Below are positions 21,885-64,000 of a stretch of DNA of 64,000 bases, piece after piece; the first letter of the stretch is position 1, and the number at the start of each line of letters is the position of its first letter. The notes below the pieces were generated by a model. It was not told where the DNA came from, did no database searches, and saw only the letters and a program-made list of their open reading frames with translations. The DNA is from a virus: IMG/VR virus record IMGVR_UViG_3300001102_000006; one strand, 5' to 3'. The translations under genes and the position numbers were made by a program.

Positions 21885-22604
21885 TCACTGAACGATTTCG
21901 TCTTCTTTGGCCACCATCGCCTGTAAGTCTTGACGTTGATCGGGTTCTTTGAGGCAGTAACCCCGCCCCCACACAGTGGAAATCAAACCGTCCGCGCCTG
22001 CTTCTGCGAGTTTTTTGCGCAGTTTACAGACAAAAACGTCCACAATTTTGACTTCGGGTTCATCCATGCCACCATACAAATGGTTCAGGAAGTGTTCTTT
22101 TGTGAGCGTAGTGCCTTTGCGCAGCGAAAGAAGTTCGACCATGCCGTATTCTTTGCCGGTCAGGTGTACCGGAGCGCCATACACGGTCGCGCTCTTTGCA
22201 TCCAGATCAACGACAAGGGGTCCGGTCTCGATTGTGGCGGATGAATGTCCTTTCGACCGGCGTACAACCGCCGTAAGTCGAGCAAAAAGCTCCACACGAT
22301 GGAAGGGAAGACCCATAACATCGTCAGCGCCTTCGGACAGAAGGGCGGCTGTTTCATCCGGATCGACAACGTTAACAAGGCACACGACTGGCGTGTGGAT
22401 GCGTGAGTTGCGTAGCCGGGTCAAAGTTTCTCGGGAGCCAAAAACGCCCAAGTTCATCAAGATCACATCATAGTCATATAGCGATGCCAGATCAAACGCT
22501 TCGTCAGCGGCGTCGGCAATGTACGGATTGAACCCCTTGCTGGACAAGGACATTTCAAGCAGGTTCGCCCGAGCAAGATTGTTTTCTACAACGAGGATTC
22601 GCAT
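21885..22604 (-). CDS. ctrA: CtrA homologue with a degenerate (non-phosphorylatable) receiver domain
   Basis: C-terminal HLTGKEY.M.ELLSLRKGTTLTKE.FLNHLYGGMDEPE.KI.DVF.CKLRKKL...TVWGRGY is nearly identical to CtrA; receiver has ENN for EDD, N at the D51 position and GLPF for TKPF. Confidence 0.93.
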   Translation of the reverse strand: MRILVVENNLARANLLEMSLSSKGFNPYIADAADEAFDLASLYDYDVILMNLGVFGSRETLTRLRNSRIHTPVVCLVNVVDPDETAALLSEGADDVMGLPFHRVELFARLTAVVRRSKGHSSATIETGPLVVDLDAKSATVYGAPVHLTGKEYGMVELLSLRKGTTLTKEHFLNHLYGGMDEPEVKIVDVFVCKLRKKLAEAGADGLISTVWGRGYCLKEPDQRQDLQAMVAKEDEIVQ

Positions 22605-47980: not shown

Positions 47981-48881
47981 TCGTCATCTCCTTCATCCAA
48001 ACACTTCTCACAGGCGTTGCAAGACCAGCAGTAACGGCAGCCGCAATCGCTCCCACCGCAGTCGCAGCAGTCATATACATTGTCGCAGTCACAATCGTCG
48101 TCCATCGTTCGCCCTCCAAATTTTGCTTAGCCTTACATCTATATGATTCGTTATGGTCCGTCAACAGGAAAATGCTTGACAAGATGTGACAATTTGTGTT
48201 AGACATGTTGGGCCAGATAGGCTCATCTGGTGTTCCTCCTTCAAACTGTCCCGGCTTCGCGCCGGGACTTTTTTCGGGACCCACCGATATCGATCTACCG
48301 GGTGGGGAGGGCGAAAAAGGGATTGTAGTAGCGGGAAAGAAACCTGAATCCCTGAGATACCCATTAAGATCGCCAGTAGCTTTCCCATTTCCTCCCACAC
48401 CATACCACCCATTCCCAGCAGCCGCCGGGAAAGTTAAGAGTATGTGAAGATGTAAGCCCTGCGTAAATTTGGCAGACCTTCATTCTTTCTCTCGGACGAT
48501 TTGTTTTTTCAAAATTGCATCACCATCTCAGCCCAAAATGAGATGTGACAATTTAGAGACCCAGTTTAATCGATTCGCCGGGTGGGTCACGAATCACAGT
48601 ACCCGAATCGTGTGAACATCTAACTAACTGATTTTGCTCAATTTATTTTGTCACATCTCAATTATTGACGTGACAATTTGCCTGAAACGTCACATTTAGG
48701 CTCCGACAAGCCCTGATTTGCCCCCGACACAGGCGAATCAGGGCTTTTTGTCTGCCGGGACCCACCATGATTCGAGATGGGGGCACGGTACTAATTTTGC
48801 TGATGTTGACTTTTTCTACGCTGACGAGTTTTTATTATAGAGATGCGTTGTTTATTAAACTTTTCGCTGTAGCGTATAAAC

Positions 48882-49514
48882 ATGGAAATCAAAGAAATCC
48901 TCGGCTCGGGAATAGAGTCCGTGTACGCCTATCACTTCCCATCTGATGAAACAGATACGATCTGGCCTATCAAAATTGGAAGAACACGGGGTAACCCGAT
49001 TGATAGAATTCGTAATCAACAAGCATCAATGAAAGAAACGCCTGTTATCGGCGTTGTTTGGCGTACAGCCAATTCTTTTTGGTTGGAGAAAGAACTTCAT
49101 GTGTCTTTTTGTGATCGCAAGCTTGACACGTTTGGCAACGAATGGTATGAGACAAACTATGATGAGATAAAGAGGGCGTGCCAAATCCAAGCACGTACCG
49201 GGGATAAGATTGTAAGGGACCCGCGACAATTAGGAGCCGCCTTACGGCGGTTTCGAACACAACGTCAGATGACCCAATCCGAACTCAAAGACGATACAGG
49301 ATTGAGACAGGGGACCCTATCGAATCTGGAAGGGGGTGGGGCCTCAAAGCTACAAACTGTGATGTCTGTTATGGCGGCATTGGATTTGGAGATGATTATT
49401 CGTCCCAGACAAAAGACTGAGTACCATGACGGCAACCCTGACAGCCTTCCAACCGGTACATTCGACCCATCCAGCGTTCTCGCAGATTACGATCCCGCCA
49501 ATAAAGGACGATAG
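48882..49514 (+). CDS. GIY-YIG-like (T5orf172-type) domain fused to a HipB-like XRE HTH
   Basis: VYAY...IKIGRT...RIRNQ...LEKELH...GNEWY; LGAALRRFR...TQSEL...GLRQGTLSNLEGG. Confidence 0.7.
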   Translation: MEIKEILGSGIESVYAYHFPSDETDTIWPIKIGRTRGNPIDRIRNQQASMKETPVIGVVWRTANSFWLEKELHVSFCDRKLDTFGNEWYETNYDEIKRACQIQARTGDKIVRDPRQLGAALRRFRTQRQMTQSELKDDTGLRQGTLSNLEGGGASKLQTVMSVMAALDLEMIIRPRQKTEYHDGNPDSLPTGTFDPSSVLADYDPANKGR

Positions 49515-49520
49515 AGCCAC

Positions 49521-49907
49521 ATGGTCAAACGAAGAAACCCAGAATGGTGGCACGTTGATAGTCAAGGTCGTAAGATCGGATACATGTGGCCCGAGGACAT
49601 GCTTACCTCCATCGAGTCGATCTGGGGTCACCGCAAAGGCATAGAAGGCTTCTCCCGCTACGCGGGCTTCAACCGTACATCAGTTGAGAAGTGGTGCCGT
49701 GGTCAGAACCCCATCCCACGCCACGTGGCGCTGCTGGTCTTATCACTTGAGAAGCTGGTTCATCGTTGGATCAAGCCGGGTGGTGACGCATACAGACGGC
49801 CAACGGAGCTATCCCATCGGCGGGACTTCCCTAAGCTCGATCCGTCATGGCTGCCGGATGAGACGAAGCGTCTGTTTGCGCTTGACATGGTAAGAGAGAT
49901 CAAATAG
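49521..49907 (+). CDS. Small HTH-like protein
   Basis: FSRYAGFNRTSVEKWCRGQNPIPRHVALL. Confidence 0.6.
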   Translation: MVKRRNPEWWHVDSQGRKIGYMWPEDMLTSIESIWGHRKGIEGFSRYAGFNRTSVEKWCRGQNPIPRHVALLVLSLEKLVHRWIKPGGDAYRRPTELSHRRDFPKLDPSWLPDETKRLFALDMVREIK

Positions 49908-50084
49908 GTATCAGGTGTTCGCAGCGTTTTGGGTTTCCGCTGTGACGCCTCCTGCCTCGGCAGCGCCTCCTGTTCCTCATGGCAGTTGATGGCGCTGCCG
50001 GGGTCCTTTTCTCACCCGCTGACGCGGGCACATGAAAACAAGAAACCTATTGACATCATCAAACGAATCAGGTATACGGTAATC

Positions 50085-50178
50085 TCTGCTCGATAGGGGA
50101 GCTTCCTTGTTCAATCCCCTGCCTCAGACTGGACCGCCTTGCTGGGTTTCCCCCTTTCCACAGCAGGGCGGTCTTTTT
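50085..50178 (+). ncRNA. Candidate small RNA with a 13-bp terminator stem and C/U-rich loop
   Basis: TTGACA(50050)-17-TATACG promoter; no ORF; GACCGCCTTGCTG/CAGCAGGGCGGTC then T5. Confidence 0.5.
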
Positions 50179-50406
50179 CGTTTCACACATTCTGCAACGT
50201 TTATCCGTTAGGCTGATGGCTTAACGATCCGCTGGGACAGCCAAGTCTCTTGGCTGTCTAAAGTTGGAGAAGCCCGCGTTAGCGGGTCAAATATGGCCTG
50301 TTACTCCGGCTTATCGACTGTAAGCGGTAAAAGATTGCCGGTTACGCCTGAGCCGCCCGCGCAATCGTCGCACGATAAATGAAACGAATAGGTGCTGCTT
50401 CACTTT

Positions 50407-50553
50407 TTGTTTTGACGATCTCTCATTTTTGTTCTGGTGATCAATCATTTTTGTTTTGACGATCTTCCATTTTTTGATACGAGATTGTTTTGACGATTGA
50501 TCATTTTTTCTATCGCACACGCACGCGCTCTGACGAGAGTTTGTTTTGACGAT
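50407..50553. repeat. Four exact TTGTTTTGACGAT repeats (50407, 50451, 50485, 50541)
   Basis: Direct reading; T-rich non-coding context. Confidence 0.85.
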
Positions 50554-50663
50554 CAGCCGTTTTTACGTTTGCTCATTTTTTCTATAGCGAAAAAGTTGTT
50601 TTCGTCTGGCGCGTGTACGCCCCGGAGAAAAAATCTATTGAAACAAAGCCGCGTTAACCTTTT

Positions 50664-50741
50664 GAAAAAGAACAGAGTCCGCACTCCTAACCCGTCCCCT
50701 ACTCGCCCGGTGTCCGCCGCGCTTTCCTGACCTCACATTTA
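50664..50741 (-). ncRNA. Repeated small RNA, copy A
   Basis: TTGCGA-17-TAATCT promoter, TGTGAGGTCAGGAAAG, hairpin, AGTAGGGGACGGG, terminator. Confidence 0.65.
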
Positions 50742-51046
50742 GATTAGATCATTGCCCAGTGATTCGCAAGGGCTAAAATAGGCGTCTTACAGATCAGACA
50801 TTTCAGCCTCGCACCGCGCTAGACCACTAAGGCCCGCTTACAGTAACGGCACGACTCCGCGTGCTATCCTGCGCCTATCTCTAAGCTATCGCCTGCGGTT
50901 TGATTCGTCAAGCGATATAAAGGCGATTGCCGCGATACCGACTCCAACGGCAAGAAACAACGCCGCCAAGGGATTCCACATGGTCACCCATACGTTACAG
51001 AATGCCCCGATTGACATCCCCGCCCATAAATACGCGCGCCCTGTCA

Positions 51047-51278
51047 TTAGAAAAGCCCCCCGATACCATACCAAACGAAAGCGCCGAACAATGCCCAGCC
51101 CGCGCCCAGCATAACGCAATCAATCGCCTTTTCGGTGGCGATGGAAAGCGCGCGCCGTGCGGGTGACATCGCGCGCAATTGTGCCTCGCGCAAGCGCCGC
51201 GCCGTGCCTGCTACGTTCCACTTGCCATAGTCGATTTGCGCGTCAAGTGTCTCTTTCAATTGTGCTGCGGTCTGCATT
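51047..51278 (-). CDS. Hypothetical protein with C-terminal TM
   Basis: AAAGGG RBS before MQTAA. Confidence 0.5.
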
Positions 51279-51350
51279 GTGATTCCCTTTCTTTGATAAC
51301 CCTTTGTCGCATGATTCCCCGTGCCAGTCAATAGAAAATTTGCGCAACCT

Positions 51351-51366
51351 TGTTTCACGTGAAACA
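51351..51366. other. parS: parS centromere palindrome 1
   Basis: TGTTTCACGTGAAACA, exact consensus. Confidence 0.9.
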
Positions 51367-51419
51367 ACGCACGCAAAAAGACCCGCTAACGCGGGCCTTT
51401 CCTTTGCAATTGCGTGGCG

Positions 51420-51737
51420 TTAGATTGCCACGGCTTCCCCGCCTGCGGCGGTCAATTCGACCAGCCAAACGGGTTTGCGACCGCGACCGGACCACGTAAG
51501 CGATTCGTCATCGGGGTGCCGGAATTTCGGCGCGGCGGGATGCACGCGCTTGGCGTTCGGGAAAACATCCTTGACCGTGAAACCGTGCGACTCAATCAAT
51601 TCGATTGCAGCATCCTTGCACGCGGCAAGCCGTTCCTTTTCGACCTGCGGGGCCAGCTTTGCAGCATCGGCGGCAAGCGCCTTGAGCGCGGCGGGGTCCA
51701 TGGTGGAAAGGTCAATACCGTGGGTTTGGGTTGTCAT
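51420..51737 (-). CDS. hns: H-NS family nucleoid protein (HvrA-like)
   Basis: IDLSTMDPAALKAL N-terminus; PKFRHPDDESLTWSGRGRKPVWL DNA-binding motif. Confidence 0.9.
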   Translation of the reverse strand: MTTQTHGIDLSTMDPAALKALAADAAKLAPQVEKERLAACKDAAIELIESHGFTVKDVFPNAKRVHPAAPKFRHPDDESLTWSGRGRKPVWLVELTAAGGEAVAI

Positions 51738-51910
51738 GAAAAAAGTCTCCTTGGGTTTGTGGCGTTGTTCGCCGTTTCGATAAAACAGTTATTGCATGGG
51801 AAAAAACGATTCGCAAGACAAAAAAGCAAGGTAAGCCAAAATTTTTATCCTTGCATCGGCTTTGCCCCTATGTCATAAGGTATGCATCGCAACGCCAAAA
51901 AGGAATCGGC

Positions 51911-52672
51911 ATGACAAAATATAGCTACATCGGAAACCTGATCCGCGTCGGTGGTGACGCAAAAACCGTCAAAGGTAACAAGGGCGGCAAGTATGTCACC
52001 GGCATTATGTATTTGATCCCGTGGAAACATGTTATTGAGGGTAAGCGCGTCAACGTCTGCCCCATGGCTGAAACCGCCGGTTGCCTTGACGGTTGCCTTG
52101 TGACCGCCGGACGCGGGCGCATGTCAAACGTGCATGCGGGCCGCATGCGCAAAACGGAATGGTTTGCAAGTGACCGCGCCGGATTCATGGCCCAGCTTGT
52201 CAAAGATTGCGCGGGCCTTGTGCGCTACTGTGGCAAGCGCGACGTGCGCCCCGCCCTGCGCCTTAACGGCACGTCTGACATTCGGTGGGAGTCGATCCCA
52301 TGCGAGCGCGACGGGCAAACGTTCCCGCATATCTTTGCGGCATTCCCTGAAATTCAGTTTTACGATTACACAAAGATTGCGAATCGTGACGTTGAGTCGA
52401 TCCCCAACTATGGCCTAACCTTTTCCTATAGTGAGGCGAATCCAGCCTATGCAAAACAGGTTGCAATTGCCCGCGCCAAGGGAATGAATATTGCGGTTGT
52501 TTTCCGCAAGAAAGAAAACATCCCGCCGCGCTTTCTTGACCGCGACGTGATAGACGGTGACGAAACCGATATGCGCTTTCTTGACCCGCAAGGCGTTATC
52601 GTGGCCCTTTACGCCAAGGGCAAGGCAAAGCAAGACGACTCCGGCTTTGTCATTGATTCAATCGCGGCATAG
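51911..52672 (+). CDS. Phage gp88-like (radical-SAM-like) protein
   Basis: CPMAETAGCLDGCL..AGRG, RLNGTSDI.WE, FYDYTK, LTFSYSE, IDGDETDMRFLD. Confidence 0.75.
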   Translation: MTKYSYIGNLIRVGGDAKTVKGNKGGKYVTGIMYLIPWKHVIEGKRVNVCPMAETAGCLDGCLVTAGRGRMSNVHAGRMRKTEWFASDRAGFMAQLVKDCAGLVRYCGKRDVRPALRLNGTSDIRWESIPCERDGQTFPHIFAAFPEIQFYDYTKIANRDVESIPNYGLTFSYSEANPAYAKQVAIARAKGMNIAVVFRKKENIPPRFLDRDVIDGDETDMRFLDPQGVIVALYAKGKAKQDDSGFVIDSIAA

Positions 52673-53037
52673 GAAAGGAAAAAACATTCAACTAATCACA
52701 ATCGGAATCCTAGTGGCCCTTTACGTTGTTCTAGGTCACTTCTAAACTAGGCGGGGGGAATCATCCCCCGCCACAAAACAGAAAGGCAAAACCCATGGCC
52801 AAAGATAGCAGAAACGAAAAGCACGAAAACCGCGACCGCAAGCGCGACCGCGACGGGGTGCAAGCTAAGCGCCGCGATGCACGCCGCGCCAAGGCAAAGC
52901 GCCGCGCGTTTGAGGCAAGCGGAAAGCACCGCTAAGAAAGTGAAGGCTAGGCGAATTTTTTACTTGCGAATCGCCTAGCCGCATGCGATAAACAGTTATC
53001 GAAACGGCGCAACGCCACAACCCGAGGAACCTAAAAC

Positions 53038-53364
53038 ATGACACGCAATTTTGACCCCGCCCTGATGTCCTTCCTGCCGCAAAGCGTTGTTGACGCTGAA
53101 TTGAAAGCGCGCGGCGCGCAGATCACAACCGTGACGTTCGCCAAGAAAAGTGGCGAAGTGACAACCCGCACGGGCATGCCCAAAGTTTACAAGCGCCGCG
53201 TGGGTGGCGAAAAGGGCGCGATTGCCGCCGCCGCCCTGCGCGACAACGGCAACGTGTTTTTTGACTACACAAACCCCGAAGGCAACGCCGCCGGAAACAA
53301 GGGCTTTGCGTTTAACAAAGGCCGCGTGATTGCCATTGGCGACTCCGGCAAACATCCCGCCTAA
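53038..53364 (+). CDS. Hypothetical early protein
   Basis: Promoter, GAGG RBS; TVTFAKKSGEV.TR. Confidence 0.65.
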   Translation: MTRNFDPALMSFLPQSVVDAELKARGAQITTVTFAKKSGEVTTRTGMPKVYKRRVGGEKGAIAAAALRDNGNVFFDYTNPEGNAAGNKGFAFNKGRVIAIGDSGKHPA

Positions 53365-53413
53365 GCGGGCGCGGCGCGCTAGGACCGTTTCGACTGGGAA
53401 AGCGCGCCGCCAT

Positions 53414-53429
53414 TGTTTCACGTGAAACA
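53414..53429. other. parS: parS centromere palindrome 2
   Basis: TGTTTCACGTGAAACA, 19 nt upstream of TTGACA. Confidence 0.9.
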
Positions 53430-53478
53430 AGGTAGCGGTAAATTACTATTGACACCGGACCCCGAATCACTCTAATCT

Positions 53479-53556
53479 AAATGTGAGGTCAGGAAAGGCG
53501 CGCCGCCCGCGCCAAGTATGGGACGGGTTAAGAGAGCGGAGTCCGTTCTCTTTTTT
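53479..53556 (+). ncRNA. Repeated small RNA, copy B
   Basis: TTGACA-18-TAATCT promoter, same motifs, terminator GAGAGCGG-AGT-CCGTTCTC then T6. Confidence 0.65.
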
Positions 53557-53636
53557 GTTTCCAACGTTTGAACGGATTCCTGCGACCCTCGCGTCCCCTA
53601 CTTGATGCTGTCGGCATCTTTCCTGACCTCACATAT
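53525..53636 (-). ncRNA. Repeated small RNA, copy C (convergent on B)
   Basis: TTGCGA-17-TAAGGT promoter, TGTGAGGTCAGGAAAG, GATGC-CGACA-GCATC hairpin, AAGTAGGGGACG; 3' end uncertain. Confidence 0.55.
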
Positions 53637-53770
53637 ACCTTAGCCGCGCGTTGCGTGATTCGCAAGAGAAAAAAATTTCGTTTGACCTGTTTTTTGTGTT
53701 GCGAATCGTTCGGGAATATGGGAAAACAGAATCACGGAAACACAAACAGACACCTAGAGAGGTTCACACA

Positions 53771-54679
53771 ATGACTTATAATCGTTACATGAAGGGCATG
53801 AGCAACGGCGGCAACATCTTTTGGGATGGCGCAACCCCGCTTGGCAATGATGAATTGCAGCGCGCCGTGCCGTCGCTTTTCGCCACCGAGGCCCACGAGT
53901 CGCGTTCTGACCGTTTCGTGCCTATCCCTACCGTCAACGTTCTGGACGGCTTGCGCGCCGCTGACTTTATGCCCGTGATGGCACAACAGGCCCGCACGCG
54001 CATTCCCGGCAAGGCCGCTTATACGCGCCACATGATCCGCATGCGCCACCGTTCGCTGACCAATACCGCCGGGGAAGCGTTCGAGGTTATCTTGACCAAC
54101 GCCAATGACGGCACCGCCGCCTATAAGATGATTGCGGGCATTTTCCGCTTTGTCTGCACCAATGGGCTGTTTACCGGGGAAGCGTTTGACACGGTATCCG
54201 TTCGCCACGCTGGCAAGTCTGTCATTGATGACGTTCGCGATGGCGCGGTGAATATGCTTGACATGGCCCCCCGCGTGCTGGACTCGGTTGAACAATTCAA
54301 GGGAATCACCCTTGACCGTGATGAGGCCCTGACCTTTGCAGAGGCCGCGCACCGCGTGCGCTTTGCCAACGCATATGAGGCTGACCCGGAAAACCCCGAC
54401 GCCTTGCCCACGTTGAACCCTAACGCCTGCCCCGTGCAACCGCTGGACCTTTTGCGGGCACGTCGCACCGCTGACAAGACTCCGACGCTGTGGAGCGCGT
54501 TCAATATCGTGCAGGAAAACACCGTGCGCGGCGGGCAGCGGGGAATCATCCAAGGCACCAACGGCAAGGCACGCCGCGCCAAGGTGCGGGAAGTCAAGGG
54601 CATTGCGCAAACCACGGCACTGAATCAAGCCCTTTGGGACCTGACCGAAAAGATGGCGGATATCAAATGCGCCGCCTAA
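53771..54679 (+). CDS. DUF932 family protein
   Basis: SRSDRFVPIPT, YTRHMIRMR, LTNANDGTAAYKMIAGIFRFVCTNGL, TLWSAFNIVQEN, LNQALW. Confidence 0.88.
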   Translation: MTYNRYMKGMSNGGNIFWDGATPLGNDELQRAVPSLFATEAHESRSDRFVPIPTVNVLDGLRAADFMPVMAQQARTRIPGKAAYTRHMIRMRHRSLTNTAGEAFEVILTNANDGTAAYKMIAGIFRFVCTNGLFTGEAFDTVSVRHAGKSVIDDVRDGAVNMLDMAPRVLDSVEQFKGITLDRDEALTFAEAAHRVRFANAYEADPENPDALPTLNPNACPVQPLDLLRARRTADKTPTLWSAFNIVQENTVRGGQRGIIQGTNGKARRAKVREVKGIAQTTALNQALWDLTEKMADIKCAA

Positions 54680-54767
54680 ACGACAACCCCCGGCGTGGCA
54701 CGATCCGCGCCGGGATTGCCTTTGCGGTCCTGACCTACGCCTTGCTAGTGATTGGACTCGCCTTGTA

Positions 54768-55096
54768 AAAGAAAAGCCCGCTAACGCGGGCTTTTTGCTT
54801 GCGAATCATTTGAAAGGATGCGATAAATAATTATCGAAACACAAACCCAATGGAGGCCAAAATGGCTGATACTACTTCTCTCGAATATTACCTTTCACCT
54901 GAATACGCTGCTAAGTATGCAGCAGAACAAAAGGCTTTAGAGGAAAGCCGGGGAAGGGTAGCCCTAACAAAGCGGCGCAATTGGGAAGCGCTGCACGGGG
55001 AACCCGCCCCTCGATGGATGTGAAAGAAAAGCCCGCTAACGCGGGCTTTTTGTCTTGCGAATCATTTGAAAGGGTGCGATAAATAATTATCGAAAC
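54768..55096 (+). repeat. Near-identical ~73-bp terminator-plus-promoter cassettes (54768-54840, 55023-55096)
   Basis: AAAAGCCCGCTAACGCGGGCTTTTTG(T)CTTGCGAATCATTTGAAAGG(A/G)TGCGATAAATAATTATCGAAAC. Confidence 0.85.
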
Positions 55097-55116
55097 GCTA
55101 AACAAGGATAGCAATC

Positions 55117-55365
55117 ATGGCCCTCAATCTCACACAAGCGCAAATCAATGATCTTTGGGAAAAAGGTTACCGCCCTTATGAGATTTACACGAAAAACCCC
55201 GCGCCGGTTGAATACTATGGCGAACAAAAACAGGCGGGCGAAATTGGCGGCTGGGATATCAAGTTTGTTTTCGCGCGCCGCGAAACGCTGGAAACCTTCC
55301 CTTTCTTTGATTGCGTGATAGGGCAAGACGCGGTTTATTCCTGCACCGAAATTCACCACGGTTGA
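55117..55365 (+). CDS. Hypothetical early protein
   Basis: Own promoter, AAGGA RBS, terminator. Confidence 0.65.
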   Translation: MALNLTQAQINDLWEKGYRPYEIYTKNPAPVEYYGEQKQAGEIGGWDIKFVFARRETLETFPFFDCVIGQDAVYSCTEIHHG

Positions 55366-55415
55366 CAAACAAAGAAACCCTGCTAACGCGGGGTTTCTGA
55401 TTCGTTCCGCGCGCT

Positions 55416-55487
55416 AAAAAAGAGAACGGACTCCGCACTCCTAACCCGTCCCCTACTTGGCGCATCCGCCTTTCCTGACCTCACAAA
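55416..55487 (-). ncRNA. Repeated small RNA, copy D
   Basis: TTGCGA-17-TATGGT promoter, same motifs, GGCG-GATG-CGCC hairpin, terminator with T6. Confidence 0.65.
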
Positions 55488-55604
55488 TACCATACCGCGA
55501 CCCTAAACGATTCGCAACACAAAAAACAAGGCAACGGTAAATTATTATGCTTGCGAATCGCCTGCACATATGCGACAAAGGGTTATCAAGGAAAGGAACC
55601 CACA

Positions 55605-56156
55605 ATGTTTGATGCAATCGAAACTCGCGACGTTGGCGAATTCACTGTCAAGGTTATCCCTGACGATTCCGGCTCGGCTGAAAGCCCTCGTGATTGGGCA
55701 CCGCTCGGAAAATTCTTTGGCTTTCACAATCGCTATGCGTCACCTGATAAGCCCCCGGCACAAGACCCGCAAGAGGCGCGCGCCATTGCCGAACGTGGCG
55801 ACAATATTTGCCTGCCCGTGTGGATGTATGACCATTCCGGCACGTGCTACCGCGCGGCGGAAACAAACCCGTTTTCCTGCCCTTGGGACTCCGGTTGCTT
55901 TGGGTTTATCTACATCACGCGCCGGGAAGCCCGCAACATTTTTGGCTGGGCGCGAATCACTGAGGAACGCCGCCAGCAAGTGCTGCAACACCTCAAGTCC
56001 GAAGTCAAGGAATATTCGGCATGGGCCAATGGGGAGGTTTACGGCTTTGTCGTGGAAGACTCCGAAGGTGATGAGGTGGATTCTTGCTGGGGCTTTATCG
56101 GTGATCCTGAATATGCCATGGAAGCCGGAATCGACGCGGCGGGGTGCGCGGCTTGA
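55605..56156 (+). CDS. Conserved-looking phage early protein
   Basis: ESPRDW, PVWMYDHSG, CPWDSG, W.NGEVYGF, DSCWGF. Confidence 0.65.
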   Translation: MFDAIETRDVGEFTVKVIPDDSGSAESPRDWAPLGKFFGFHNRYASPDKPPAQDPQEARAIAERGDNICLPVWMYDHSGTCYRAAETNPFSCPWDSGCFGFIYITRREARNIFGWARITEERRQQVLQHLKSEVKEYSAWANGEVYGFVVEDSEGDEVDSCWGFIGDPEYAMEAGIDAAGCAA

Positions 56157-56418
56157 GCACTGCAAACATGCTGCGCACGTTATTGGCGTGCGCAGAACGC
56201 CCCGACGATAAACGCCTGAATTCGCACCTGTCAGAGTCTGACATTGCTGAAACAATTCGCCTTGCAATCGAGTGTCTGGAAACAGAACAATTCAAGGCGG
56301 ATGAATCGGAAAAGTTGCGCGCCGTGCTAGTCGATCTATCACGCGCCGCCATTGCAACGGACTCGCCTGAATTCGTGGCAATCCCCGCCGCTACGTGGCA
56401 AACCTTGCTGGACTCCAT

Positions 56419-56434
56419 TGTTTCACGTGAAACA
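56419..56434. other. parS: parS centromere palindrome 3
   Basis: TGTTTCACGTGAAACA, in a 47-bp block matching copy 2 at 46/47 positions. Confidence 0.9.
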
Positions 56435-56519
56435 AGGTAACGGTAAATTACTATTGACACCGAACAACGAATCGCCCTATAAAGGGTTATCGAAACAACA
56501 AACCCAAAGGAACGAAAAA

Positions 56520-58082
56520 ATGGGCACTCGCGCTGCATACACCTTCAAAGATGACACTGGCGTTTTCCACGTCTATAAGCACTGGGATGGATATCCCACG
56601 GGCGCGGCAATGCACCTGAAAGCTACGCTGGAATCCGGCAAGGCTTGGGCACTGCCCCGCTATGAAGCGGATGAATTCGCCGCCGCGTTTATCGCTGCAA
56701 ACAAAGATTCGGACGGCGATATTCGCTTGCTGAAAAGCCCCCGTAAAGTTGGCGACATTGAATTCGCCTATACCGTATGGCAGGCGGGTGATGGCGAATT
56801 GATGATCCGCGTGCAATCCGTCAATAACTGGGATAAGTGGCAGGCGGAAACCCTGTGGCGCGGCAAGCTGGCAGAATTCCTTGATACCGGCGCGGAGTCC
56901 ATCGAATGAAACCCCTTGTCCTATTCCTCACCATATGGGGCGCTGACGCGCCCCACGATGGCCCAATGGTCTACGTCATGGGCGGAAACCTGACGCCGCA
57001 AGCCTGCACCGCTGGCATGGTTGCCCTTGATCGTATGGCAACGCTTGTGGGCGGGTCTGTATCGTGCGAGTTTGACCTTGCAGAACCCCACGACTCACCC
57101 GATGCACCGCTAGTGCGCTTCCCCGCTTGTGAGTATGAGGACTCCACCAATTGCATATGGAATGCGCAAGAACGGGGTAACGGTATCGGGCAATCCTTTT
57201 ACAACGTCTATGGCGATGTGTTGCCCATTGACTGGAACAACGAATCGCAATAACATCTAAGATGTGACAAAACGAAACCCAAAAGAAAGCCAAAGCTATG
57301 ACCCACGCCCCGACCCTGTTACCAACGCAAGGCACCGCAATTCAGATGGCGGATGTCTATTTCAATCTACACCGGGGGGTGTGGTCCTGCCGTTCGCGCA
57401 AAACAGGGCGAGTCGAGCATCACGCCCGTGCCGTTGTTTCGCTCGATCCTGTCGCCATGGTGGTGCAGCAAGCGGGCCGCGCCAAGGTATGCCGCACGGG
57501 GCAAAAGAATGTGCATGCATTCGCCCGCATGGCGCTGGGCGTTGTATCCGATGACGTGCAGGGCTGGGCTGATTATGCCAATGCAATCCCCGGCCTTGTG
57601 CGCCTGTCATATTCCCCTACCTATGCGGGGCACTTCTATCGTGTCGATACGAAAGAACCTGTGACCCACGTGCAGGGGCTGTATATGCTGGCCCCCTGTG
57701 GTGCGCCGCCCCGCGTGCTGGCCTATCTGTAAGATGTAGGGCAGGGCAAAATTACTATTGACCCTGCCCCACGAATCACCTATAACAGTAGGTATAGGAA
57801 CACAGACACACAAGGACAGAGACAATGGCATCCATCGACACATACATCTACATCGAGCACAACGGCACAGAGTATGAGTGTGCTGTCACTGTGGAAGGTG
57901 ACGTTAGCCATGGTGGCAGCAACAGCTATGGTAGCGATGAGCCTGAATGGACAGAGGTGGATGACGTGACCGTATACAACGCACGTGGCAAGCGCGTGAG
58001 CAAGCGCCTGATGGATAAGATTGATGCAAAGCAATGGGATCACATGACAGACCTGCTAGTCGAGGCTGATGCAAGCTGGTGA
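56520..58082 (+). CDS. Early hypothetical ORFs (56520-56909, 56906-57253, 57298-57732, 57825-58082)
   Basis: Promoters and RBS; VYKHWDGYP; VYFNLH. Confidence 0.6.
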
Positions 58083-60657: not shown

Positions 60658-60733
60658 GGGGCCTTCGTCTAGCGGTCTAGGACGCCTCCCTTTCAAGGTG
60701 GAAACGCGGGTTCGAATCCCGTAGGCCCTTCCA
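60658..60733 (+). tRNA. tRNA-Glu(TTC)
   Basis: Cloverleaf, CT-TTC-AA loop, GGTTCGAATCC, encoded CCA. Confidence 0.92.
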
Positions 60734-60754
60734 AAATTTAATAGAGAGGTACAT

Positions 60755-61033
60755 ATGGACCTTCTCAATCTGCACCCTCCAATGCCCGAGGGCAAGGAAC
60801 ATCTCGTCTATCGCGACTTTCCAAAAGTGCGCAAAGGACTGTTTGATTGGTTTCTTGAACAGCTTGAACCGTATGAGCTTGAGGTCTTGACCTACGCTCA
60901 ATACGAAACCGAACACGGGCTTCTTGCCCGAGGACAGATTTGGGTTAACCCTGACGGGTTAGCGCTATTGCCAGAAGCCCTTGAACGGGATATGGCTAAA
61001 CTAATCGCTGCGGGTCATATTGATCCGGAGTGA
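60755..61033 (+). CDS. Hypothetical protein
   Basis: GAGG RBS; lies between tRNA genes. Confidence 0.6.
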   Translation: MDLLNLHPPMPEGKEHLVYRDFPKVRKGLFDWFLEQLEPYELEVLTYAQYETEHGLLARGQIWVNPDGLALLPEALERDMAKLIAAGHIDPE

Positions 61034-61058
61034 GGGGTTCGCCCCGCGCTCTTTGACA
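61034..61058 (+). promoter_or_regulatory. rrn-type boxB/boxA antitermination-like element
   Basis: GGGG-TTCG-CCCC hairpin followed by CGCTCTTTGACA. Confidence 0.55.
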
Positions 61059-61271
61059 ATTTGGTGTTCTGAACGTTGCTCCACGGATGTGGGTTAAACA
61101 ATACGGCAATGTGCGCTGATAGGGGCCTCCCAACGGGGGTTATCCGATGACCGGCGTCCCTTACGGGGAACAATTATTTGGCGCGCATCCGGGATATTCC
61201 TGTGTTCGTTTCCGTGTTTGCCTCCTTAGTGCTTTGGCACTTCTCGGATGCGCACCTAATGATTGTTCTAT

Positions 61272-61343
61272 CGAGACATGGTATGGTGGGTGTAGGTTGC
61301 GCAACCTCTCACGCGGATGGTTCAATTCCTCCGGTCTCGTCCA
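61272..61343 (+). pseudogene. Degenerate tRNA-like gene, anticodon unassignable
   Basis: CGAGAC/GTCTCG acceptor, GGTTCAATTCC T-arm, TCCA end; poor D-arm and irregular anticodon arm. Confidence 0.5.
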
Positions 61344-61478
61344 AAATTAGCGGAATCACGAGGTTCTTGGCACAGACGCCCCAACGTCCCTGCCCTGATA
61401 CTGGTCGTGCCGTTGGATTGGGGTCCACGAGAGTTCCCGTCTGTAAGTCGGGCATAAAATACTCAAGTTTTCTTATTT

Positions 61479-61554
61479 GTGTCTGTGGTGATGCTGGTGC
61501 CCACATCGGATTGAAGTCCCGAAGATGAAGGTTCGATTCCTTCCGGACACACCA
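61479..61554 (+). tRNA. tRNA-Phe(GAA) with G37
   Basis: GTGTCTG/CGGACAC acceptor, TTGAAGT loop, GGTTCGATTCC, ACCA. Confidence 0.85.
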
Positions 61555-61679
61555 ATACTACGTGCTGCTGAACAAGTGGCACCAACTTTGCAAGGTTCAT
61601 TCGGGAGCGTGGTGGCGCTTGACTGGAACCAGTCTGGATCAGATGACGTAAAATATGCCCTTGCAACTTCCACCGCTTT

Positions 61680-61751
61680 TGTGTCACCGCATGGTGCGGA
61701 CATCGGTCTCATAAGCCGAATGACTGGGATCGTTACCCAGTGACACAACCA
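61680..61751 (+). tRNA. Atypical tRNA with CAT anticodon (Met/Ile2)
   Basis: TGTGTCA/TGACACA acceptor, TCGGT-CTCATAA-GCCGA, T-loop ATCGTTA, short D-arm. Confidence 0.65.
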
Positions 61752-62180
61752 AATAAATGGTACTGTCCAAAGATACCGGGCAGCTAAGACGCCGAGAGAG
61801 GGAGATCGGTAGTGCCGAACGCTTGACACAACAGACGAATCGTTCTATACGACACACAACACGGAGCAGCGGGGAAACGTCCTGATCCCCAGTGGTGAGG
61901 TTGTGTGCAGCCGAGGCTAAGCTAATGACATAGGAACTTACCGAGATGCCGGTCAACGCCCGCTATCGGACAAAACTATGATCAAGCTGATCGTCTCCGC
62001 AGGAGCCGCCAAGCAATAACACAAAGCATGGGCGTGACTTGGTTGGTTGAGAGGAACCAACACTTTTTTCTGAGGCGCATCCCCCGACCAAAATAGAGGC
62101 GGTTTAGGGACCGTTCCGATCCCTAGTCGGACGAGGTGTATCACCAAGCGAGGCGGGGTGCGCCTGAGAAAGAAGTGATT

Positions 62181-62270
62181 GACGTGGTGACGGAGCGGTA
62201 ACGTGCCGGATTGCAAATCCGAGACACTGGGTAGCACCAGTCGTGGGTTCAAATCCCACCCACGTCTCCA
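62181..62270 (+). tRNA. tRNA-Cys(GCA) with a long variable arm
   Basis: GACGTGG/CCACGTC acceptor, TTGCAAA loop, 20-nt variable region with ACTGG/CCAGT stem, U73, CCA. Confidence 0.85.
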
Positions 62271-62323
62271 TTAAATAGTAACCTTTCAGTGGTCTTATTG
62301 GCTTAGCTGAAAAGGATACTCCG

Positions 62324-62644
62324 ATGAAAAAGCTCCTACTCGCCGCAGCAGCGGTTATTGCCCTGTCTGTGACGCCATTTGCTGTTGCTGCACAACAGCA
62401 AAACTGTGGACCACGAGAAGTTGTCGCAGAACGACTTACGGATAACTACGGCGAAACGCGTCAAATGCGTGCCTTGGGAGCGAACAACACTCTTGTCGAA
62501 GTCTGGGCCAGCACAGAAGGCAGCGACCCTACGGGGTCTTGGACTATCACTGTTACTCGCCCTAACGGGGTCACGTGTTTGGTTGCATCCGGACAGGCGT
62601 ATGAAGCGCTGAGTGAATCTCTGGTTGAGGGCGACCCAACTTAG
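62324..62644 (+). CDS. Small secreted protein of a conserved alphaproteobacterial type
   Basis: Signal peptide; CGPRE...L..NYGE...VEVWAS...GSWTI..T.PNG.TCLVASG. Confidence 0.7.
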   Translation: MKKLLLAAAAVIALSVTPFAVAAQQQNCGPREVVAERLTDNYGETRQMRALGANNTLVEVWASTEGSDPTGSWTITVTRPNGVTCLVASGQAYEALSESLVEGDPT

Positions 62645-62654
62645 GAACCTTACC

Positions 62655-62930
62655 TTGGAATATTTCGCCGTTATTCGAATTGCTTTCGGGCAGTACATTC
62701 TGACTGTTTCAGAGACCGAGCGATCTTGGTCAGACACTGACATCGCTGTTCGCGCCGAGCGCTTGCAACAAGAAATTGCGTCCCAAGATTGGGTTCGCGT
62801 CATGGACACTTCGATGCAAATTCGGAATGACTCCATCCAGTGCATGTTTACAGAGACCTATTCGGTCGAGAACGATGTCGTCGCGCTGGTCAGCACGGAC
62901 GGACTGCCTACTTTCAATACTGCATATTGA
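62655..62930 (+). CDS. Hypothetical protein
   Basis: ORF between 62644 and the DUF2793 gene; start uncertain. Confidence 0.45.
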   Translation: MEYFAVIRIAFGQYILTVSETERSWSDTDIAVRAERLQQEIASQDWVRVMDTSMQIRNDSIQCMFTETYSVENDVVALVSTDGLPTFNTAY

Positions 62931-62933
62931 TCC

Positions 62934-63281
62934 ATGGCAGACACACCGAATTTGAGCTTGCCGCTAATTGCGGCGAGCCAAGCACAAAAGCATGTGACTG
63001 CTAATCAAGCCACACTCGGTCTTGATGCACTGTCACAGCTTAGCTGTATTGATCGGAACCTATCGGCTCCGCCGGGATCACCCGGAAACGGTGATACCTA
63101 CATCGTCGGATCATCACCTACGGGTGCATGGGCCGGACAAGCGAATTCCGTCGCCTATTTCTACGGCGGCGCATGGTATTTCTATCCTCCGAAAGAGGGA
63201 TGGATTGCATACCTTCAAGACGAAACAACCTACCGGGCCTTTAATGGAACGAGTTGGGTTCTTCTTTCAACGCTAATATAG
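62934..63281 (+). CDS. DUF2793 domain protein (GTA/phage tail-associated)
   Basis: TPNLSLPLIAASQAQKHVT.N.A...LD, PP..P..GDTYIV...PTGAWAGQ...A....GAW....PKEGW. Confidence 0.85.
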   Translation: MADTPNLSLPLIAASQAQKHVTANQATLGLDALSQLSCIDRNLSAPPGSPGNGDTYIVGSSPTGAWAGQANSVAYFYGGAWYFYPPKEGWIAYLQDETTYRAFNGTSWVLLSTLI

Positions 63282-63286
63282 CGTAA

Positions 63287-63362
63287 CAGGGTGTAGCTCA
63301 GTTGGTAGAGTGCCGGTTTTGGAAACCGGAGGCCGTGGGATCGTGACCCACCACCCTGACCA
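63287..63362 (+). tRNA. tRNA-Pro(TGG)
   Basis: Cloverleaf, TTTGGAA loop, atypical T-loop ATCGTGA, ACCA. Confidence 0.88.
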
Positions 63363-63365
63363 TTT

Positions 63366-63441
63366 TGCGGGTTAGAGAAGTAGTTATCTCGCCATCCTCA
63401 TAAGGTGGAGATCGTTGGTGCAAATCCTTCACCCGCAACCA
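63366..63441 (+). tRNA. tRNA-Met(CAT), fMet-like
   Basis: TGCGGGT/ACCCGCA, CTCATAA loop, T-loop TGCAAAT, ACCA. Confidence 0.82.
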
Positions 63442-63558: not shown

Positions 63559-63596
63559 ATAGCCATTGACATGGGCGACCAAGTTGCCTATGTCTC

Positions 63597-63968
63597 ACCT
63601 TACACACGTTCATCTGCAAAGCGGATGCATTTCTGGACCGGGGGGCAGTACCCCGCGCCTCCACCATAATAGCGTCAGTCTGACGAGACGTTCTGAGAAG
63701 GTTTGTTGGGAAGTCATGCCCTGATGGATTGGAGAACAGACGCTATTTTGATGGGGGCGATATAGGATCGACAGGATGAATAAGTAGAGTGGCGTGTCGG
63801 CGTAGCCTCACCGTTATCGGGGACAGGACGAAAGTCTGAACTTTACAAATGCAATCGACATGAATGCACTTGTTGCTTCCGCTGCAAACGATGACTTCGC
63901 GCCTCGCGAAGTTGCAATCGCAGCCTAAGCACTTGGGGTCCGGAGGTACCTAGCAACAGAAACCTCCA
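63597..63968 (+). ncRNA. ssrA: Circularly permuted two-piece tmRNA
   Basis: Acceptor piece ending CGCCTCCACCA (63666) precedes coding piece starting GGGGGCGATATAGGATCGAC (63753); G3:U70 pair; tag ...ANDDFAPREVAIAA-stop; outer ends approximate. Confidence 0.92.
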
Positions 63969-64000
63969 ACCTACCCACTTACCTACAAACATACTAAAGG

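Follow-up and report, generated by a model that had tools for sequence, protein, structure and literature searches.

ParB–parS systems are usually viewed as the machinery of chromosome and plasmid inheritance, and their use by the phage phi29 as a sporulation curiosity. The Bacillus phages phi29 and Nf carry five host-type parS sites that are exploited through the host protein Spo0J (Meijer et al., 2005, as cited in PMC2731898); in the account given there, the function is spore entrapment, and sites for Spo0A, the host master response regulator, lie near the early promoters. Chromosomal parS sites and their ParB–CTP (cytidine triphosphate) complexes are known from Caulobacter, Hyphomonas and Bacillus subtilis, and centromere sites are found on phage genomes in the ParAB–parS system of P1 and the SopAB system of N15. 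The sopC sites of N15 are scattered and lie near promoters. Parallels among regulatory clamps are KorB–OB of RK2, VirB–virS and BisD of ICEclc (PMC12409273), which involve parS-like palindromes near promoters of mobile elements. Here we describe three perfect copies of the chromosomal parS palindrome in the early region of a phage, found in a stretch of 64,000 nucleotides from the IMG/VR virus record IMGVR_UViG_3300001102_000006 (hereafter the window, meaning the whole 64 kb analysed).

The locus resembles phi29 and Nf in that a phage classed as lytic, with no parB of its own, carries several parS sites of host consensus. It differs from phi29 in genome size (19 kb against approximately 146 kb here), in the confinement of its sites to the early region, beside promoters, and in their gain and loss between sister phages. 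The spore segregation with Spo0A boxes at early promoters that is described for phi29 has no counterpart, as the cultured hosts of the relatives are non-sporulating roseobacters. As a parallel to the Spo0A sites of phi29, the phage here itself encodes a CtrA-like regulator. With chromosomal parS the locus shares the identical 16-bp sequence and the occurrence of few sites within 5–8 kb, but the sites are viral, lie beside neither parAB nor a recognised origin, and no ParAB encoded in cis was found. P1 and N15 have their own ParA and ParB and element-specific centromeres, whereas here neither an element-encoded ParB nor a ParA-type ATPase was found in five complete relatives or among the open reading frames (ORFs) of the window, and the sites follow the host chromosomal consensus. 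Proximity to promoters (19–46 nt) is shared with KorB and VirB; in those systems the clamp is self-encoded and its sites have diverged, whereas here the site is canonical, no element-encoded ParB-like regulator was found, and the clamp would be the host's.

A scan of the window bore out the initial annotation, which had placed the exact 16-bp palindrome TGTTTCACGTGAAACA at three positions. All three copies match the chromosomal-type consensus TGTTNCACGTGAAACA and together they span 5.1 kb. The sites and their immediate neighbours are:

51351–51366: parS site 1, flanked by the terminator that ends the H-NS-like gene and by a promoter on the minus strand; kept in the metagenomic relatives G001 and L186
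53414–53429: parS site 2, syntenic with the site at 140695 of phage RpAliso and with sites of G001 and L186, each of which follows a conserved 108-aa gene
56419–56434: parS site 3, lying over the final seven codons of a conserved ORF of about 90 aa that ends at 56440
51374–51400, minus strand: terminator-like intrinsic hairpin and T-run of the H-NS-like gene, directly upstream of site 1
51420–51737, minus strand: H-NS-like gene of 105 aa (Pfam PF00816, E = 2e-12), 82% identical in G001, adjoining site 1
55513–55528: candidate decayed fourth parS with 9/16 matches, followed by the same AGG..AACGGTAAATTA cassette as the intact sites and putatively preceding the promoter of a 183-aa gene

No further copy of the palindrome with up to two mismatches occurs in the window, where 0.03 would be expected from shuffles, and the next-best 16-mers differ from it at four positions. 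The same gap in the mismatch spectrum (0–1, then at least 4) is seen in every genome that bears sites. At the position of the 9/16 relic, phages V10 and DSS3_MAL1 (MAL1) have an intact parS. The earlier identification of the palindrome as the chromosomal parS consensus holds, since TGTTTCACGTGAAACA served as wild-type parS in an electrophoretic mobility shift assay with ParB of the marine alphaproteobacterium Hyphomonas neptunium (PMC6650430), and the same 16-mer is given as the parS consensus in many ParB papers. The claim that all copies are intergenic needs amending: it stands for site 1, between a terminator and a promoter as had been said of the copy next to the hns-like (PF00816) gene, and fails for site 3, whose overlapping ORF was also predicted on another contig, in an independent call, and has a counterpart of 66% identity in G001. 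Sites 2 and 3 do lie in a near-identical block of about 47 bp, and the 19-nt distance to a −35 hexamer noted for that block applies to all three sites.

The window is part of a CbK-like siphophage of roseobacters with a genome of about 146 kb; the contig that contains it is recorded at 145,870 bp, from an algae metagenome, and the phage was found in no RNA-seq run. The phage origin had been assumed at the outset and agrees with the large terminase (TerL), tRNA and tmRNA genes found in the window, which also encodes NAMPT, RNA and DNA ligases and a CCA-adding enzyme. TerL is 64–69% identical to that of the siphophages DSS3P8, vB_RpoS-V10 (V10), RpAliso, DSS3_MAL1, MD18 and RcXuper (about 147–150 kb) and 34–41% identical to that of CbK-like phages of Caulobacter, Sphingobium and Erythrobacter. 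The host is Ruegeria pomeroyi DSS-3 for DSS3P8, V10 and RpAliso, Phaeobacter for MD18 and Rhodobacter for RcXuper; the record of MAL1 names no host, and we count it among the DSS-3-linked phages. Closer relatives come from metagenomes: the IMG/VR contig G001 (TerL 85% identical), which at 53 kb is 36% complete and belongs to a genome of about 148 kb, and contigs L186, L184, L182 and L195.

We propose that the three palindromes are orphan host-type parS sites through which the phage links its infecting genome to the ParABS system of the host, in the manner of phi29. By analogy with that phage we give this reading about an even chance of being right, an overall estimate in which binding by ParB is already counted; the binding step, taken separately, is very probable. 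On entry of the phage early region into the cell, each perfect site would nucleate host chromosomal ParB, which would close as a CTP clamp and slide, spreading over the early region and turning some 5 kb of it into a small ParB partition complex. Both ParB and ParA would come from the host, the phage supplying neither, and the phage genome would be placed, or passed on, together with the chromosome during a delay or stall in lytic development. Since an early promoter follows closely on every site, ParB loaded there would probably influence those promoters as well. What the binding achieves is speculative, and so are the functions put forward in the initial annotation (titration, MipZ, PopZ and promoter timing).

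The search for a phage-encoded partner supports the host as the source of ParB. The initial annotation had reported no parB in view, and Pfam scans of about 115 ORFs in the window (64 of about 146 kb) detected no ParB or ParA gene and no other member of the partition families. Six-frame profile searches, in which control genomes scored as expected, found no ParB_N, HTH_ParB or CbiA/ParA domain in the five complete relatives, and none was found in G001. V10 ORFs shared with RpAliso and missing from MD18 and RcXuper were then taken as genes that might track the sites, and one credible family emerged, that of the 183-aa protein encoded at 55605–56156 (plus strand). As a parS binder this protein was rejected: a homologue is present on L182, whose fetched 20 kb are free of parS, and its structural model has no DNA-binding motif. 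With neither a ParB or ParA of the phage nor a DNA-binding candidate that tracks parS, the binder is most likely host ParB.

The same results bear on two other accounts of the sites. One is ordinary plasmid-prophage partition, in which a temperate phage encodes its own ParAB outside the window, an outcome that the initial annotation had named as fatal to its proposal. The window does cover only 64 of about 146 kb, an XRE protein is annotated as an “immunity repressor”, and all five complete relatives encode two tyrosine recombinases. Nevertheless, no ParB_N, HTH_ParB or CbiA was found in any of those complete genomes, MD18 is reported to be potently lytic, and no prophage or plasmid copy was found in 185,579 species genomes searched with the parS-promoter pattern and TerL (exact 8-residue words required). 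We consider this account largely refuted and give it only a very slight chance. The recombinases measure about 400 aa and about 225–250 aa, lie at 55375–55881 and 83969–84559 in V10 with equivalents in RpAliso, MAL1, MD18 and RcXuper, and occur in phages that are described as lytic; genome dimer resolution and integration are both possible functions. No terminal repeats are given in the deposited phage records.

The other account holds that a phage protein unrelated to ParB binds the palindrome as an ordinary operator, its identity with parS being coincidence or mimicry. The promoter-proximal position is operator-like, and the window encodes an XRE-type helix-turn-helix protein (49521–49907) along with many small proteins of no recognised family. 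A 16/16 match to the ParB consensus that is kept in diverged phages is hard to obtain by chance, however, the XRE gene is also present in the parS-free MD18 and RcXuper, and the presence/absence analysis leaves no DNA-binding candidate that tracks parS, so that we regard an operator of this kind as quite improbable.

Conservation across the clade argues in the same direction. The initial annotation had named a lack of conservation in relatives as grounds for rejecting its proposal; the sites are in fact kept in the same early region of the relatives, downstream of the terminase gene, and all of the relatives' sites are confined to that one region. Whole-record scans and the contigs gave the following counts:

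V10 and DSS3P8: three perfect parS each
RpAliso: three parS, one perfect and two with only the outermost base changed
DSS3_MAL1: two perfect parS
G001 and L186: three perfect parS each
L184: at least two parS
L195: one parS

In the complete site-bearing genomes of 147–149 kb no additional parS was found at up to three mismatches, and in V10 and RpAliso the whole set lies within about 6–8 kb. Synteny across the clade holds for two positions or more: one lies after the conserved 46-aa and 108-aa genes and another before an operon with 115-aa and L5 gp82-like genes. Between lineages the flanks are wholly different while the 14–16-bp parS core is perfect, a pattern that marks selection by a protein whose specificity is exactly that of ParB.

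A TerL tree revealed that phages with and without parS are interleaved. In the sister pair MAL1 and MD18 only MAL1 has sites, in the sister pair RpAliso and RcXuper only RpAliso has them, and L182, with no parS in the 20 kb that were fetched, branches as the outgroup to a set of site-bearing phages made up of G001, the window and L186. At one MAL1 site the MD18 orthologue retains 9/16 matches with one deletion between almost identical flanks, and these roughly seven changes in 16 bp imply that selection acts on the site as such; at the second MAL1 site the two phages differ by an indel of about 55 nt. The pattern of the sister pairs, together with the decayed sites, indicates rapid turnover of sites, with roughly two to three per genome kept in some lineages. 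Sites are present in all four DSS-3-linked cultured phages of the clade. None was found in five unrelated R. pomeroyi DSS-3 phages (V11, V16, V18, V12 and V13) or in the more distant CbK-like phages Lacusarx, vB_EliS-L02, CcrColossus and RXM, and a host-wide pressure for parS was accordingly rejected.

The sites are placed close to early promoters. The elements concerned, with −35 hexamers assigned by eye, are:

51326–51331, minus strand: −35 hexamer TTGACT, 19 nt from site 1, of the promoter of a 76-aa gene (51047–51277, minus strand)
53449–53478, plus strand: early promoter beside site 2 (TTGACA, CGAATC in the spacer, TAATCT), driving a small RNA
53483–53556, plus strand: structured small RNA expressed from the site 2 promoter, with a covarying hairpin, ending at a hairpin and T-run
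56454–56459, plus strand: −35 hexamer TTGACA next to site 3, of an operon that starts at 56520 with 129-aa, 115-aa and L5 gp82-like genes

From each of the three sites the distance to the TTGAC −35 hexamer downstream of it is thus exactly 19 nt (read on the minus strand for site 1), and the promoters of sites 1 (76-aa gene) and 3 share the 5′ untranslated region motif AAAGGGTTATC. They belong to a family of about 16 promoters in the early region (48–58 kb) that read TTGCGAATC or TTGAC, nine bases and CGAATC; three of the approximately 16 are preceded by parS. In the relatives parS and the −35 hexamer are separated by 19, 21, 29, 30, 40, 41, 42 or 46 nt, and nearly every site examined in the clade adjoins an early promoter on at least one side, several of these promoters driving the small RNA. 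No promoter was recognised beside the site of L054, a fragment that carries the small RNA. The spacing of parS and −35 hexamer was also tested for helical phasing, which gave R = 0.85 and p = 0.002–0.017 for the first seven spacers and p = 0.05–0.19 once L195 (46 nt) was included, a result that is suggestive only.

From this arrangement, bound ParB and the adjacent early promoters would seem to influence each other, and it may be asked whether transcription is the main purpose. Host ParB at parS would then serve chiefly to activate or repress some of the early promoters, to insulate them or to counter their silencing, in a way similar to that of KorB, VirB and BisD, the ParB-family clamps that act for their own elements. 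Nearly all examined sites stand just upstream of an early promoter, several of which drive the small RNA, parS marks three of about 16 promoters of one family, and the spacers cluster at 19–21, 29–30 and 40–42 nt; an H-NS-like gene abuts site 1, the window DNA has a GC content of 52%, and a gene-activating ParB-like clamp is on record (PMC12409273). Against this, the helical phasing is not robust to inclusion of the 46-nt spacer of L195, a terminator hairpin stands between parS and promoter in L184 and L195, and any element would fall near a promoter in intergenic regions as compact as these, from which part of the observed proximity may stem. Moreover, the effects of chromosomal ParB on transcription are usually weak. 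We hold transcription as the main role to be rather unlikely, and the same doubt attaches to its wider form, in which host ParB–CTP clamps would be a borrowed transcription or anti-silencing device for the early promoters and small-RNA genes of a virulent phage, with the centromere protein of the host in the part that VirB or BisD play elsewhere. If that form were true, sister phages that gain or lose the 16-mer would thereby be adjusted to a particular host.

Each promoter of the family carries a conserved CGAATC, and with it a GANTC methylation site of CcrM, either within the −35 element or directly behind it, which suggests that early transcription is coupled to host control of the CcrM/GcrA type. 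CGAATC is enriched (58 against 31 expected), while GANTC is depleted overall (179 against 249 expected). A GcrA-like gene was found only in MD18. Examples of early promoters within 48100–57800 of the window are those at 50050, 52964, 54799, 55055, 55551 and 57758 on the plus strand and at 55517, 53665, 51816 and 50769 on the minus strand.

A phi29-like use of the sites is ranked first because phi29 is the only experimental precedent, and because such a use fits the cell-cycle proposal made for CbK-like phages, in which CtrA-based “lytic deferment” has been suggested (PMC9437464), as well as the phage's own CtrA-like gene. That gene lies at 21885–22604 (minus strand); its best match is the Rhodobacterales CtrA model of NCBIfam (E = 1e-83) with 280 bits, short of the equivalog cut-off of 350 bits, and the next family scores 112 bits. 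The Rhodobacterales type of the regulator indicates a roseobacter host, and the presence of the gene agrees with the view in the literature that the CtrA pathway is exploited by CbK-like phages. The window contains only two full CtrA boxes (TTAA-N7-TTAA).

Several points weigh against coupling to host ParABS on the phi29 model. The roseobacter hosts (Ruegeria, Phaeobacter and Rhodobacter) are non-sporulating alphaproteobacteria, so that the purpose known from phi29 cannot be transferred directly. The relatives are described as lytic, and this, with the lack of prophage or plasmid copies in the genomes searched, gives no sign of a persistent state that would need partition. MD18, RcXuper and, over its fetched 20 kb, L182 do without parS, which makes the sites accessory. 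Finally, partition does not require that the sites always adjoin promoters, an arrangement that speaks for a role in transcription.

Binding by host ParB could also harm the cell directly, as replicating phage DNA with three sites per copy would titrate ParB away from the chromosome, disturb segregation and, via MipZ, the alphaproteobacterial division inhibitor that ParB binds, block division of infected cells. Several perfect sites of predicted high affinity in a phage with no ParB of its own suit such a sink, the effect would follow automatically from binding, and the coupling of ParB and MipZ is established in Caulobacter (PMC3355305). A sink leaves confinement to the early region and promoter adjacency unexplained, though, two or three sites are kept rather than many, and sister phages on other MipZ-bearing hosts have none. 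As the purpose of the sites we consider it improbable.

Orphan host parS sites are probably widespread in phages, as judged from viral contigs. The perfect 16-mer was found in at least 119 IMG/VR contigs, with two to five copies in 26 among the matches listed. ParB_N was found in none of 50 sampled contigs with a perfect parS, 11 of them estimated to be at least 90% complete. Also in the sample are two genomes of about 15.5 kb with inverted terminal repeats, similar to phi29. Taken with the roseophage sites, the 0/50 result suggests that phages generally borrow host ParB, a strategy that has largely gone undescribed. The initial annotation went too far in calling host-parS capture by a lytic-type phage undescribed, as the principle is already known from the parS sites of phi29 and their use via Spo0J (in the account of PMC2731898). 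What is new here is the non-sporulating alphaproteobacterial host and the large, cell-cycle-aware phage, the promoter-adjacent placement in the early region, and the gain and loss between sister phages; our literature search found no paper on parS in these roseophages. MAL1/MD18 and RpAliso/RcXuper are natural pairs of near-isogenic phages that differ in the presence of parS; the phages have been cultured, and both R. pomeroyi DSS-3 and Phaeobacter inhibens are amenable to genetic manipulation.

The small RNA next to site 2 belongs to a family of about 70 nt with further copies in the window at 50736–50660, 53632–53560 and 55484–55410, all on the minus strand. In all members the 5′ GAGGUCAGGAA is invariant and a AGUAGGGGACGGGUUAGGAG segment is conserved; the hairpin varies, with many changes that compensate one another, and every copy comes with a promoter and a terminator of its own. 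Phages of the clade have three to four copies, the 12-kb L184 fragment has eight, some of them overlapping, and 32 distinct members were collected; no Rfam family matched at gathering score.

The 183-aa protein is modelled with a pLDDT of 95 as an uncharacterised alpha/beta fold without a match in the PDB, similar to YubB-like proteins of plasmids; its nearest named AlphaFold DB clusters are “YubB ferredoxin-like” and “antitoxin YezG”, and it has more than 100 metagenomic homologues. Its gene adjoins a DUF932 gene (53651–54679, plus strand). Both resemble genes of plasmid leading regions, and so may be early anti-defence genes.

Elsewhere, five phage tRNA genes (Glu, Phe, Cys, Pro and Met) lie within 60658–63441, and the alpha-type two-piece tmRNA gene is at 63562–63970 (plus strand; Rfam RF01849, 122 bits). 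Positions 1–31000 hold a dense RNA-repair and nucleotide module with a Thg1-like tRNA-His guanylyltransferase, the CCA-adding enzyme, two types of RNA ligase, a cyclic-phosphate receiver domain (cREC_REC), an AAA_33 kinase-like domain, NAMPT, thioredoxin and an ATP-dependent DNA ligase.

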